64,000 bases of DNA from Clostridia bacterium (GTDB lineage: Bacteria; Bacillota; Clostridia; UMGS1883). Positions within the stretch are counted from its first letter, which is position 1. Every line of letters begins with the position of its first letter. The translations under genes and the position numbers were made by a program. The DNA lies in NCBI GenBank assembly GCA_045656645.1, contig JAZORN010000094.1, positions 8,522 to 72,521 on the forward strand, read 5' to 3'. Of the stretch, positions 26,098 to 47,321 are shown piece by piece. The notes under the pieces are model-generated. The model saw only the letters and a program-made list of their open reading frames with translations, did no database searches and was not told the origin of the DNA.

Positions 26098-27444
26098 TTG
26101 AAAAGCAAAACAGTATTTGTATGTAAGGAATGCGGTAACGAATCTGCAAAATGGATGGGAAAATGTCCCTCTTGCGGAACGTGGAATTCTATGATTGAAG
26201 AGGTTATAGAAAAGACCTCAGATGCAAAAATAAAGAAAAGAGTTTCCCCCGTTCTTATAAAAGATGTATCTACAGAGGAGGGGGAGAGATGCTCAGCAGG
26301 CTCAGGCGAGCTTGACCGTGTGCTTGGCGGAGGTATTGTTAAGGGGTCTCTTATCCTTTGCGGTGGTGAGCCCGGAATAGGAAAGTCAACCCTACTGCTG
26401 CAGGTTGCAAAATTTGCATCCAAAGACAGTAAGGTTTTATATGTTTCAGGCGAAGAATCGGACAAGCAAATCCGTCTTCGAGCAGAAAGGCTCGGTGCAG
26501 TTTCAGACTCTCTTTATGTTCTTAATGAAACAGATTTAGAGTCCATAATTTCTGCAATTGAGGTTTTAAAACCACAGACAGTTATTGCGGACTCAATACA
26601 GACACTATATTCACAAAACCTGACCTCTGCGCCCGGAAGCGTGGGGCAGGTAAGAGAATGTACTCTTAAGTTTATGGAGCTTGCAAAAAGTAACGGCATA
26701 ACAGTTTTTATTGTCGGTCACGTTACAAAAGAGGGCGCTATTGCAGGACCGAGAGTTCTTGAACATATGGTTGACTGTGTACTTTACTTTGAAGGTGAAC
26801 GCCATCAAAGCTACAGAATAGTACGTGCCGTAAAAAACCGTTTTGGTTCTACAAATGAAATCGGTGTATTTGAAATGACGGATAAGGGACTTGTTGATGT
26901 TCCCAACCCTTCACTGATGCTCCTTTCGGGGAGACCCGTAGATGCCCCGGGGTCAGCAATAGTATGCTCCGTAGAGGGGACAAGACCGATTTTAGCAGAA
27001 ATTCAGGCACTTGTATCAAAGAGCAGCTTTGCCATTCCGCGCAGAATGGCGACAGGTGTTGATTTTAACAGAGTATCGCTTATAATGACGGTGCTTGAAA
27101 AACGAATGGGGCTTAATTTAGGTAATCAGGATGCATATGTTAATGTGACGGGCGGTATACGCCTTGATGAGGCTGCGACAGACCTTGCGGTAGCGTGTGC
27201 TATTGCATCAAGCTTTCGTAATCAGCCGCTTCCGTCAGATATGGCGTTTTTCGGTGAAGTTGGTCTGACGGGTGAAATACGAACCGTTACTCAGGCAGCA
27301 CGCAGAATAGCCGAGATACAGAAAATGGGATTTAAGCGGTGTATGCTTCCGTTTGACTGCCTTGGAAGTATAGATAAATGTGACGGAATTGAGCTTATAG
27401 CAGTACGCTCGCTTTCAGATGCACTTGGGTATATCAGGGAGTGA
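26098..27444 (+). CDS. radA: DNA repair protein RadA
   Basis: N-terminal C4 zinc finger (CKECGNESAKWMGKCPSCGTWN). Walker A GGEPGIGKST. KNRFG motif. Lon-like C-terminal domain. A TTG start is predicted. Confidence 0.85.
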   Translation: MKSKTVFVCKECGNESAKWMGKCPSCGTWNSMIEEVIEKTSDAKIKKRVSPVLIKDVSTEEGERCSAGSGELDRVLGGGIVKGSLILCGGEPGIGKSTLLLQVAKFASKDSKVLYVSGEESDKQIRLRAERLGAVSDSLYVLNETDLESIISAIEVLKPQTVIADSIQTLYSQNLTSAPGSVGQVRECTLKFMELAKSNGITVFIVGHVTKEGAIAGPRVLEHMVDCVLYFEGERHQSYRIVRAVKNRFGSTNEIGVFEMTDKGLVDVPNPSLMLLSGRPVDAPGSAIVCSVEGTRPILAEIQALVSKSSFAIPRRMATGVDFNRVSLIMTVLEKRMGLNLGNQDAYVNVTGGIRLDEAATDLAVACAIASSFRNQPLPSDMAFFGEVGLTGEIRTVTQAARRIAEIQKMGFKRCMLPFDCLGSIDKCDGIELIAVRSLSDALGYIRE

Positions 27445-27448
27445 TAAT

Positions 27449-28171
27449 ATGGGAAAAACTGTCTTTATAACAGGTGCCTCACGTGGGATAGGCGCCAGTA
27501 GTGCAAGACTTTTTTATGAAAACGGATATAATGTTGTAATTAATTATAATAACAGTAAGGAAAAGGCAAAAGCTCTTGCTGATAGCTTACCCGGGGCACT
27601 ACTTCTGCAGGGTGATGTGTCAAACGAGGAAGATGTAAAGAGAATGGTTTTTACTGCAACAGAGCACTTTGGAAAAATAGATGTGCTTATCAATAACGCG
27701 GGAATATCCTATGTAAACCTTTTGACGGATACATCTCTTTCTGATTGGGAAAAGCTTTTCAGCGTAAATGTAACGGGCACATTTCTTATGACAAAGTACG
27801 TGACAGAAAATATGCTTTCAAATCATAGTGGAAAAATAATTAATATAAGCTCTATCTGGGGCATAAGCGGAGGTAGCTTAGAAAGCGGCTACAGTGCAAC
27901 AAAGGGAGCAGTAATAGCATTTACAAAAGCACTGGCAAAGGAGCTTGGTCCCTCGGGAATAACGGTTAACTGCGTTGCCCCCGGCTTTATTGATACTGAT
28001 ATGAACAGTGATGTTACTCCCGAAGATACAAAGGCGTTTTGCGATGATACTCCGCTTGGTAGGATAGGAAGTCCCGAAGAAGTTGCAAAAGCTCTTCTTT
28101 TCCTTGCATCAGACGGTGCGGACTTTATCACGGGGCAGATTATAGGTGTTGACGGCGGTGTAAGTATATAG
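27449..28171 (+). CDS. SDR family oxidoreductase (3-oxoacyl-ACP reductase-like)
   Basis: TGASRGIG cofactor motif and the YSATKGAV catalytic YxxxK. Confidence 0.8.
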   Translation: MGKTVFITGASRGIGASSARLFYENGYNVVINYNNSKEKAKALADSLPGALLLQGDVSNEEDVKRMVFTATEHFGKIDVLINNAGISYVNLLTDTSLSDWEKLFSVNVTGTFLMTKYVTENMLSNHSGKIINISSIWGISGGSLESGYSATKGAVIAFTKALAKELGPSGITVNCVAPGFIDTDMNSDVTPEDTKAFCDDTPLGRIGSPEEVAKALLFLASDGADFITGQIIGVDGGVSI

Positions 28172-28210
28172 TCACAAAATAAATCCTTCTTCATACAATG
28201 ATAGTGGATA

Positions 28211-28483
28211 GCCGTTGATGGATTATCCAAGCCACGTTTTTTGCTTCCTCTTTTTTGTGGCTACTGCGTTAAAAGCCTTGCCAATACGGCAGTATAAGCT
28301 TCGTTTTTACCTTGTATCCGTCAAAAAATAGTTTGCAAAAAATTCTTTGAACCTGAAACGGATGAAATTTCGTGCATATTTTAATGCGGCGGACGCCGAT
28401 AGGCTGACGCCTTTCAAGGACAACAAATTAAAAGATGCCTAAATTTCACCGTTTCAGGCGGGTTCGGATAATCCTTCAATGGC
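28211..28483. repeat. Imperfect 18-bp terminal inverted repeats (GCCGTTGATGGATTATCC ... GGATAATCCTTCAATGGC) enclosing about 236 nt with nested long-range helices
   Basis: 16 of 18 positions are complementary between 28211-28228 and 28466-28483. A second interrupted helix of about 21 bp pairs 28349-28370 with 28441-28465. The whole element lies in the 5' leader of the downstream CDS. Confidence 0.5.
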
Positions 28484-28517
28484 TAATGCCCATAAATTGT
28501 ATAAGGAGGATTTTTCT

Positions 28518-29351
28518 ATGGAAGAAAAGCTTACCGGCTCCTTTGGATGCAAGGAAAAGGTTTGTATACAGACGGATAAAATATATGACTCTTGCAGGAG
28601 CAAGGAATGTATAGAATGTTTACGTGTGTACTTAACGGAAACCGGGCAGGAAATCGTTGACAGAGCTATTGATATAAAATGCCGTAAATCAGAGGTTATC
28701 TGGGTGTTCAGTGATGTGGAAAAGATGCCCTTTAACAGAGGTTATTATACGGTTGACCTTAATTTCTTCTTCCGCATATCTCTTGATGTTTACACAGGTG
28801 TTTCACGCCCCGTTGTTGTCGAGGGTGTTGCAAGCTATAACAAAAAGGTTGTTCTTTTCGGCAGCGAGGGAAGTGCAAAAATCTTTACATCACGTTATAA
28901 GGAAGACAGCTTTGACCCGCAGCTCTGGCAAAAAACCAATATGCCTAAGGCTATTGTGGAAACGCTCGACCCGATTTGCTTAGGTGCAAAAATCTCGGAT
29001 GCAGGGGATAAATGCTGCCATTACGGTGATGATGATATCGACGTATGCAATATTCCTGATTGCGTTTCACGAGTGTTTGAGGACAGATTTGTAAATGCAC
29101 GTGACAATCAGCGCAGAGTATATGTATCGCTTGGTCTTTTCACAATTATTAAGCTTGAACGAAATGTTCAGCTTCTTATCCCTGCATATGATTTCTGTAT
29201 TCCTGAAAAAGAGTGCGTGACAAATTCACCTGATGATCCGTGTGAAATTTTTGCAAATATAAATTTCCCTGTGGATGAATTTTTCCCGCCCGTAGAGGGA
29301 TGTCTGAGCGGGGATAGCAATGAATGTAATTGCTGCGGTGAGGATGAGTAA
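28518..29351 (+). CDS. Hypothetical cysteine-rich protein (about 26 Cys in 277 aa), no signal peptide
   Basis: Start at ATG 28518, after a strong RBS TAAGGAGGA. The N-terminus has CKEKVC...CRSKECIEC and the C-terminus has several Cys pairs (CCHYG, CNIPDC, ECNCCGEDE). I recognise no family. Confidence 0.5.
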   Translation: MEEKLTGSFGCKEKVCIQTDKIYDSCRSKECIECLRVYLTETGQEIVDRAIDIKCRKSEVIWVFSDVEKMPFNRGYYTVDLNFFFRISLDVYTGVSRPVVVEGVASYNKKVVLFGSEGSAKIFTSRYKEDSFDPQLWQKTNMPKAIVETLDPICLGAKISDAGDKCCHYGDDDIDVCNIPDCVSRVFEDRFVNARDNQRRVYVSLGLFTIIKLERNVQLLIPAYDFCIPEKECVTNSPDDPCEIFANINFPVDEFFPPVEGCLSGDSNECNCCGEDE

Positions 29352-46773: not shown

Positions 46774-46992
46774 TGGTGGAGGCGAGGGGAGACGGATGCT
46801 CAGCATCCTACCTGCTTGACGACCGAAAGCAAAGCTTTCGGTACCCGTCTGCGCACCAACTTCGCTGAAAATGATTATCAATCATTTTCTTACGCTCGTT
46901 GCCCTCATAGGGTTCAACTCCCTAATAAAGCAGTAAAAAAGGAACATACCTTGTGGTACATTCCTTTTTTATTATGGTGGAGGCGAGGGGAG
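46774..46992. repeat. Exact 18-bp direct repeat TGGTGGAGGCGAGGGGAG (46774-46791 and 46975-46992); the second copy is the 3' end of ssrA
   Basis: The two copies are 201 bp apart. Three perfect hairpins (46794-46808, 46823-46841, 46867-46889) and a T-arm-like GGGTTCAACTCCC lie between them. Confidence 0.6.
46935..46970 (-). terminator. Terminator hairpin of ssrA (minus strand: GGAAUGUACC-acaa-GGUAUGUUCC followed by UUUUUU)
   Basis: 10-bp stem with two G-U pairs, immediately 3' of the tmRNA CCA end. Confidence 0.6.
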
Positions 46993-47321
46993 TTGAACCC
47001 CTGTCCGAAAACATATTCACACAGGCATCTCCGAGCGCAGTCACTTATTTAACATTCCCTCCGCCGCAAGGCAAGTGACAGCCCATACGGTTTTAGTAGC
47101 TTCATTTGTCATGCATAGCGCAAAGCTTAACTATGTCACGTTCACCACTGCGTGACGCTCTTATCCGAGCCGTGGTCCTCCCGGTAAGAACGGCCGCCTA
47201 ATTAGGCAGCGTAAGCTAAATTATTGTTAGCGTTTAAATTTAAAATTCGGGATTTTAACGCAGTTCCCGCTGCGGCTCGCTTCCCATGCTTCAACATCCC
47301 CGTCGAAGCCGGTACGCCCCC
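46975..47321 (-). ncRNA. ssrA: tmRNA (transfer-messenger RNA, SsrA)
   Basis: The minus strand reads 5'-GGGGGCGUACCGGCUUCGACGGGGAU...GGACAGGGGUUCAACUCCCCUCGCCUCCACCA-3'. It has a tRNA-like acceptor and T-arm. The internal ORF GCU AAC AAU AAU UUA GCU UAC GCU GCC UAA encodes the tag ANNNLAYAA. smpB lies immediately upstream. Confidence 0.9.

Follow-up and report, generated by a model that had tools for sequence, protein, structure and literature searches.

The intergenic region between a ymfI-like short-chain reductase gene and the gene for a cysteine-rich hypothetical protein in a Clostridia bacterium raises the question of what its unusually strong structure is for. An earlier note, made from the letters of a 64-kb stretch of DNA (hereafter the window), described this 346-nt region as a highly structured leader with inverted repeats and nested helices, and offered it as a novel cis-regulatory RNA such as a riboswitch or attenuator, a processing site, or an inserted miniature inverted-repeat element (MITE). 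Comparison with related genomes indicates that the description merged two layers, a native leader hairpin and an element inserted into it (Table 1). Against NCBIfam, the upstream gene exceeds the equivalog cutoff for the EF-P 5-aminopentanone reductase YmfI, which points to this enzyme rather than to FabG. The cysteine-rich protein has 2071 homologues, widespread across Clostridia, and matches no family in the local Pfam and NCBIfam libraries searched.

Table 1. Features of the intergenic region and its neighbouring genes, in window positions
Feature	Position	Strand	Remarks
Upstream gene, ymfI-like short-chain reductase	27419-28171		NCBIfam EF_P_mod_YmfI, 254.1 bits against a cutoff of 238
Intergenic region	28172-28517		Between the ymfI-like gene and the cysteine-rich protein gene
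-35-like CACA	28173-28176		
Native leader 5' arm	28181-28199	+	Anti-Shine-Dalgarno CCTTCTT; kept in about 45 relatives without the element
-10-like CATACAAT	28192-28199		Within the native 5' arm
Left copy of duplicated TA target	28209-28210		From alignment of filled and empty sites
Left terminal inverted repeat	28209-28233	+	5' strand of P1
Body of the very probable non-autonomous mobile element, 273 bp	28211-28483	+	Absent in near-isogenic and related genomes
Left arm, long hairpin	28234-28345	+	Closing stem about 28237-28257 / 28322-28342
Apical hairpin of left arm, ATAC-GGCA-GTAT	28284-28295		
Right arm	28349-28465	+	P2 28349-28370 / 28441-28465; P3 28374-28385 / 28427-28438
Most conserved core	28374-28439	+	P3, purine-rich non-canonical helix and P4
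Purine-rich non-canonical helix	28388-28396 / 28416-28424		5' strand / 3' strand
Hairpin P4	28398-28415		Loop TGAC at 28405-28408
Right terminal inverted repeat	28461-28485	+	3' strand of P1
Right copy of duplicated TA	28484-28485		From alignment of filled and empty sites
Native leader 3' arm	28496-28514	+	Includes Shine-Dalgarno AAGGAGG (28503-28509); then a T-run and ATG at 28518
Downstream gene, cysteine-rich 277-aa hypothetical protein	28518-29351	+	Reading frame intact

The pairing reported for the region is real. The outer repeat GCCGTTGATGGATTATCC (28211-28228) agrees with the reverse complement of 28466-28483 at 16 of 18 positions, as the earlier note had it, and a repeat search extended it to 25 nt at 84%. 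The inner helix that the note had drawn was recovered as two perfectly paired segments, 28352-28361 with 28449-28458 (10 of 10) and 28363-28370 with 28441-28448 (8 of 8), and a third helix, P3, is nested within them at 92%. The strength of the fold was likewise confirmed, as a 359-nt stretch reaches -126.9 kcal/mol compared with -79.2 +/- 4.9 kcal/mol in dinucleotide shuffles (z = -9.7), with none of 100 shuffles as good; the complementary strand of the same stretch folds with z = -8.0. The ribosome binding site said to follow closely is present 18 nt past the right TA. The outermost helix of the fold had been overlooked; it is formed by the two arms of the host leader and lies outside the element.

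Evidence for an insertion comes from sites that lack the insert. At loci L100 and L101 the downstream protein is 100% identical to that of the window, and the intergenic spacer measures only 71-77 nt. Aligned with these two loci, the empty site reads AGTGGG-TA-ATCCCCAT (in a longer form, ...CATACAATGATAGTGGG-TA-ATCCCCATAAATTGTATAAGGAGG...) and the filled site of the window reads AGTGGA-TA-element-TA-ATGCCCAT. The empty sites in L100, L101 and L002 have one TA and the window has two, a target-site duplication; therefore, a TA dinucleotide received an insertion of 273 bp and was duplicated in the process. The insert is also missing in L001, L002 and L043, whose proteins are 96-99% identical, and in approximately 40 further species, and the roughly 45 relatives have only a spacer of about 70 nt where the window has the additional 273 bp. 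When the region was compared by blastn with 80 loci that carry relatives of the downstream protein, only the first ~36 nt and the last ~30 nt aligned, and these two end stretches are contiguous in the relatives. We are therefore confident that the segment is an inserted mobile element, as opposed to a regulator dedicated to the cysteine-rich protein gene. The insertion is recent, being polymorphic among strains with an identical protein. The earlier note had named dispersed copies flanked by target-site duplications as the mark of a MITE, and it is this alternative that the filled and empty sites, together with copies dispersed in other contexts, bear out. A longer, 8-bp duplication or a homology-guided insertion (compare AGTGGATA with AATGGCTA) was also considered, and was rejected because the other copies have no similarity between flank and end. 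The apical hairpin of the native leader in L015 and L017, which lies ~40 nt ahead of the ATG, reads TAGCCAATGGCTA, and this equals the outermost 5 + 8 nt of the two ends of the window element; the agreement could be a chance match between GC-rich palindromes or an excision footprint.

What the element interrupts is itself a structured leader. Within the ~70 nt that precede the ATG, the ~45 relatives share a conserved motif composed of (T/G)(C/A)ACAAA, a gap of ~15 nt and CATA(C/T)(A/T)AT, which is followed by a small variable hairpin and then by ATTGTATAAGGAGG and a T-run. The arrangement AC-N16-CATACAAT resembles the consensus for the mother-cell sporulation sigma factors (E/K), which we take, from B. 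subtilis, to be AC-N16-17-CATA...T, and the 5' arm of the leader probably carries a sporulation-type promoter-like motif. RNAalifold applied to a MAFFT alignment of the native leaders gave a weak consensus owing to misalignment, and each sequence was therefore folded by itself. In essentially all of 30 native leaders folded in this way, the Shine-Dalgarno sequence is paired with an upstream CCUCC or CCUUC, and the hairpin has a z-score of -3 to -11, mostly -5 to -11, its arms varying between species with complementarity kept. The conserved leader structure is not the insert that the earlier note had singled out; the genuine one is this short native hairpin that sequesters the Shine-Dalgarno sequence. 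The element occupies a TA in the apical loop of the hairpin, ~10 nt after the -10-like box, and in the predicted fold P1 closes the insert and the host arms are still able to pair around it.

The native leader can be read as a device in which a promoter-like box lies inside the 5' arm of a terminator-like hairpin that sequesters the Shine-Dalgarno sequence. RNA reading through from the ymfI-like gene would form the hairpin, its Shine-Dalgarno sequence would be blocked, and transcription might be terminated at the T-run. Transcripts from the internal promoter would be without the anti-Shine-Dalgarno arm and would be translatable. Such a device could explain how a sporulation-type gene is kept silent directly behind a vegetative gene. 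Given that the element sits just after the -10-like box, sporulation transcripts in the window strain would begin just ahead of the element, by a few nucleotides, and include its full length in the sense orientation, resulting in a 5' UTR of ~310 nt. Strains with filled and empty sites amount to a natural experiment on the native device.

The element belongs to a dispersed family. A core pattern was derived from sequence common to the copies in the window and in L002, and a scan of metagenome contigs with this pattern returned 19 loci: at about 16 of them the copy is full-length (~277 nt) and of identical architecture, two match by chance within coding DNA, and one (L095) holds the core hairpin only. 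With a profile of the family, L085 and L089 were each found to carry a diverged second copy, and L048 and L077 a partial one; the family profile matches the window at 28209-28485 with E = 2.5e-61. A covariance model of the core (R1) finds the window copy with 83.7 bits (E = 7e-18) as its sole match in the 64-kb window, and elsewhere it matches only copies that were already known. Extra copies, which the earlier note proposed to look for, are not found by blastn-short within the window; this search and R1 run with filters off agree on a single copy, and among the 80 related genome loci there are only one truncated and two partial copies. Metagenome assemblies hold several copies each, with two on a single contig in L085 and L089; for the source genome, the one copy seen refers to the 64-kb window.

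In all, about 20 related copies lie at unrelated intergenic sites of Clostridia metagenome contigs, in both orientations, and some are in tandem, chimeric or internally deleted. The copy L085a is 93% identical to that of the window and its flank is unrelated; the A-type copies, spread over several contigs of a single assembly, share 90-97% identity, and the difference between subfamilies amounts to about 50%. The terminal inverted repeats measure 26-28 bp in the other copies, the element is 273 bp long in the window (277 bp with both TAs), and about 14 of 17 family copies have TA on either side. Relative to the neighbouring genes, approximately eight copies have the same orientation, seven the opposite one and two a divergent one. 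The copies fit tightly into intergenic spacers next to unrelated neighbours, including a fab/acc operon, an ABC permease, glycosidases, ROK and GtrII; for example, the L089 copies are near fabF-fabZ and accA, and the L088 copy is near an ABC permease and a glycosidase gene. The site TA|AGGAG, where a stop codon meets the following ribosome binding site, holds many of the insertions. The first base of the element is G or A, such that TA plus this base forms a stop codon again, and the right TA restores TAAGGAG. This placement reads as survivorship of insertions that did no damage.

Tandem arrangements, solo ends and mixed ends are seen at L089 (10290-10590 and 12630-12909), L098 (1-345), L091 and L096, among them a solo 28-nt end adjoining a full element. 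Tandem neighbours have one TA in common (L089 near 10315, L098 near 68). Three copies, L089a, L091 and L096, have ends of different subfamilies, for which recombination between copies in tandem would be the simplest explanation. Reduced forms are also present. On the minus strand of L002 (712-823), a 112-nt internally deleted derivative composed of the right half and both ends lies between alr and radA, flanked by TA and TG, and the alr reading frame is extended by ~10 codons. The alr-radA spacer is 4 nt in the window and in L043 as opposed to the 112-nt insertion in L002, a second, imperfect case of filled and empty sites. In L095 (4359-4456), the core hairpin stands alone as ~100 nt without arms or terminal repeats, between a hydrolase gene and a gene for a GlpP-type antiterminator. 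Relatives of the left arm only are found in L077 (2647-2770) and L048 (1515-1668), of which the former precedes a distant homologue of the cysteine-rich protein gene by ~250 nt.

The element has no sign of coding capacity. Stops occur in all six frames, no open reading frame is conserved among subfamilies, and a search with the concatenated six-frame translation against 5.8 billion proteins gave 7366 word candidates, none of them significant. A small-peptide gene in the core (in the window, MKFRAYFNAADADRLTPFKDNKLKDA) was rejected, as other subfamilies do not keep this frame open. Likewise, a conserved internal sigma-70 promoter was discarded, because the subfamilies in the alignment do not share the -35- and -10-like boxes, and so was a tRNA-derived origin suggested by a GGTTCGA motif in the ends, since ARAGORN finds no tRNA. 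The core pattern has no match in viral contigs, and blastn of the element against plasmid and phage collections gave none.

All subfamilies adopt the same Y shape, in which P1, formed by the terminal repeats, joins a left arm of ~110 nt and a right arm of ~115 nt, and the right arm contains P2, P3, a purine-rich internal region and the hairpin P4. We evaluated this structure on an alignment of 17 sequences against controls in which pairing partners were slid by 1-3 columns, and against 500 shuffles. Of the cells, 83.6% are paired compared with 36-50% in the slid controls, both sides have changed in 67 of 107 pairs, and the covariation score is 0.368 as opposed to 0.08-0.15 in the slid controls, a value reached in none of the 500 shuffles. 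Changes on both sides affect 21 of the 26 pairs of P1 and 26 of the 41 pairs of helices 2 and 3 in the left arm. Mean pairwise identity is lowest at the outer ends (43-47%), where pairing is nevertheless kept, and highest in the core (75%). Conservation is therefore inverted relative to ordinary MITEs: the ends need only pair, and it is the interior that is conserved in sequence.

The part between P3 and P4 that would be drawn as an internal loop, 5'-GGAGGACGA / 5'-GAGGACGAC, can be written antiparallel as nine positions, G-C, G·A, A·G, G-C, G·A, A·G, C-G, G·A and A·G, with three tandem G·A pairs among them. Among diverged copies, base changes at the Watson-Crick positions are compensated and the G·A steps are kept, as in L089b, where G-C becomes A-U and C-G becomes U-A. 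In L085b (L085 7005-7280), the two strands of this helix differ from one another (G3/T6 versus A3/C6) and still pair, at pairs 189-220 and 192-217, a difference better explained by a helix than by a pair of direct repeats bound by protein. The left and right arms end in apical loops that are reverse complements of each other, C-GUCA-G and C-UGAC-G, and in L085b both have been replaced together, by C-ACAAA-G and C-UUUGU-G. Such complementarity fits a loop-loop contact, or equally a single protein that recognises the two arms each on a different DNA strand. Counted over the complete structure, G·U pairs outnumber A·C by 101 to 79, and in P3 and the G·A helix by 19 to 3. The form that folds may be RNA or single-stranded DNA, or the pairing may merely reflect symmetry of the DNA.

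How does this bear on a function at the locus? That the whole region is a dedicated cis-regulatory RNA of the cysteine-rich protein gene, be it riboswitch, attenuator or processing site, agrees with its very stable fold, its sense orientation between a promoter-like motif and a ribosome binding site, and the Shine-Dalgarno-sequestering hairpin that the native flanks do form. However, the insert is absent next to an identical gene and from all of the ~45 orthologous leaders, its copies adjoin unrelated genes in either orientation, and it has no match in Rfam, and we regard a dedicated regulator as highly improbable. The riboswitch or attenuator claim of the earlier note is thus not sustained, even though its remark that no known riboswitch matched holds: Rfam 15 cmscan at gathering thresholds reports only a tmRNA elsewhere in the window, and at E <= 10, on the region and an A-type copy, only chance matches. 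The tmRNA gene is at 46975-47321 on the minus strand (161.6 bits in Rfam), with the tag peptide ANNNLAYAA according to ARAGORN. A milder proposal is that the element has been domesticated here, the longer loop of the native hairpin and the structured 5' UTR altering termination, mRNA stability or translation. The element lies exactly between the -10-like box and the ribosome binding site, its P1 helix would leave the host arms able to pair, and effects of bacterial MITE transcripts on adjacent mRNAs have been described (PMC2229807). Against this, the insertion is strain-specific and recent, and hence there is no sign of selection for it, which leaves domestication quite improbable in our view. 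Reading the segment as a mobile insertion removes a false riboswitch candidate from the annotation, and it shows that a very strong z-score for a leader fold can stem from such an insertion.

With regard to what moves the element, the TA duplication and the terminal repeats of 26-28 bp suggest cut-and-paste mobilisation in trans by a DDE transposase of the IS630/Tc1-mariner type, an assignment that we hold tentatively. A transposase with matching ends was not found, in that a fuzzy scan of terminal-repeat variants over all the loci compared returned only the known copies and no paired ends at IS-like distances, and Pfam scans of the genes around the copies gave no transposase. Furthermore, the ends are not the conserved part (43-47% compared with 75% in the core), which fits poorly with a DDE transposase and differs from a typical MITE bound by its transposase. 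On the minus strand of L085 (2833-3675), a gene for an XerC/D-like tyrosine recombinase lies 334 nt from L085a; other copies have no such neighbour, and the proximity is judged to be coincidental.

The pattern of conservation also allows a different reading, in which the interior is a recognition module for an enzyme that acts on a folded single strand of DNA or RNA, for instance an HUH nuclease, a recombinase or a reverse transcriptase, and the terminal repeats matter only as a helix. Hypervariable ends that always pair around a conserved interior point this way, as do the compensatory Watson-Crick changes in the G·A helix, the L085b strands that argue against direct-repeat protein sites, and the complementary apical loops that changed together in the same copy. 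In addition, the other strand of the purine-purine helix would consist of pyrimidine mismatches, and G·U exceeds A·C by the 19 to 3 given above for P3 and this helix. On the other hand, the 101 to 79 of the whole structure amounts to no clear strand asymmetry, copy orientation is unbiased, the change of both loops is a single event, and no gene for an associated enzyme adjoins any copy. A clean 2-bp TA duplication is moreover typical of DDE cut-and-paste transposition, and not of HUH or reverse-transcriptase mechanisms. We therefore consider recognition of a folded strand unlikely. The same caution applies to its more specific form, a structure-dependent non-autonomous element whose enzyme reads the three-way junction with its three tandem G·A pairs and complementary apical loops, which we likewise think doubtful. 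If recognition of the fold is true, the interior and not the termini would carry the signal for mobility; the combination of termini that vary and still pair with a conserved structured core at least hints at recognition of fold over end sequence.

Whichever enzyme is responsible, the element agrees with the operational definition of a bacterial MITE in the following respects: it ends in inverted repeats bounded by TA, duplicates its target site, lacks coding capacity, would give transcripts with stable stem-loops, and has both filled and empty sites. Bacterial MITEs have been reviewed as elements of under 200 bp, which the 273-277 bp found here exceed, although this size criterion is descriptive and not mechanistic (PMC2229807). 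Searches of the literature for MITE, IS630, Firmicutes, covariation and the core sequence found no description of this family, which adds to the MITEs a family of gut and rumen Clostridia whose conservation is inverted compared with the classical ones.

A close parallel in a related host is RUP of S. pneumoniae, a MITE of 107 bp thought to be mobilised by IS630-Spn1 (PMC2229807). Both are non-coding elements of Firmicutes with terminal inverted repeats, insertion at TA with TA termini, intergenic location and stops in all frames (PMC2229807). RUP is shorter, its ends resemble those of a known IS, whereas the present element has no known partner and its ends are the least conserved part, and no conserved internal structure or function signature has been reported for RUP, in contrast to the covarying Y fold kept here. 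Correia/NEMIS elements of Neisseria share terminal repeats of ~24-26 bp, TA termini and a target-site duplication, as well as long stem-loop transcripts, size variants due to internal deletion, and a mobilising transposase that is unknown (PMC2229807). However, they measure 107-155 bp, belong to another phylum, fold as a simple hairpin without a three-way junction, and contain IHF-site and promoter motifs that the element is without. Stowaway-type MITEs and derivatives of Tc1-mariner-IS630 elements are similar in their TA duplication, terminal repeats of ~28 bp and non-autonomous nature, but these families are defined by ends in common with a transposase-encoding partner.

REPINs and the PATEs of IS200-IS605 are, like this element, non-coding, structured and long-lived, and their folded single strand is recognised by an enzyme, but they make no target-site duplication, have no TA-flanked terminal inverted repeats and use a fixed adjacent target of 4-5 nt. 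Membership of either group was rejected since the element has TA on both flanks, a variable upstream flank and terminal repeats. A retron ncRNA was rejected as well, as no reverse-transcriptase gene adjoins any copy and the neighbours are housekeeping or metabolic genes. The likeness to retrons lies in overall shape, in that the end-pairing repeats (a1/a2) of msr-msd enclose two hairpin domains in a Y-shaped RNA of 150-300 nt; retrons, however, adjoin a reverse-transcriptase gene and are not dispersed as TA-flanked insertions.
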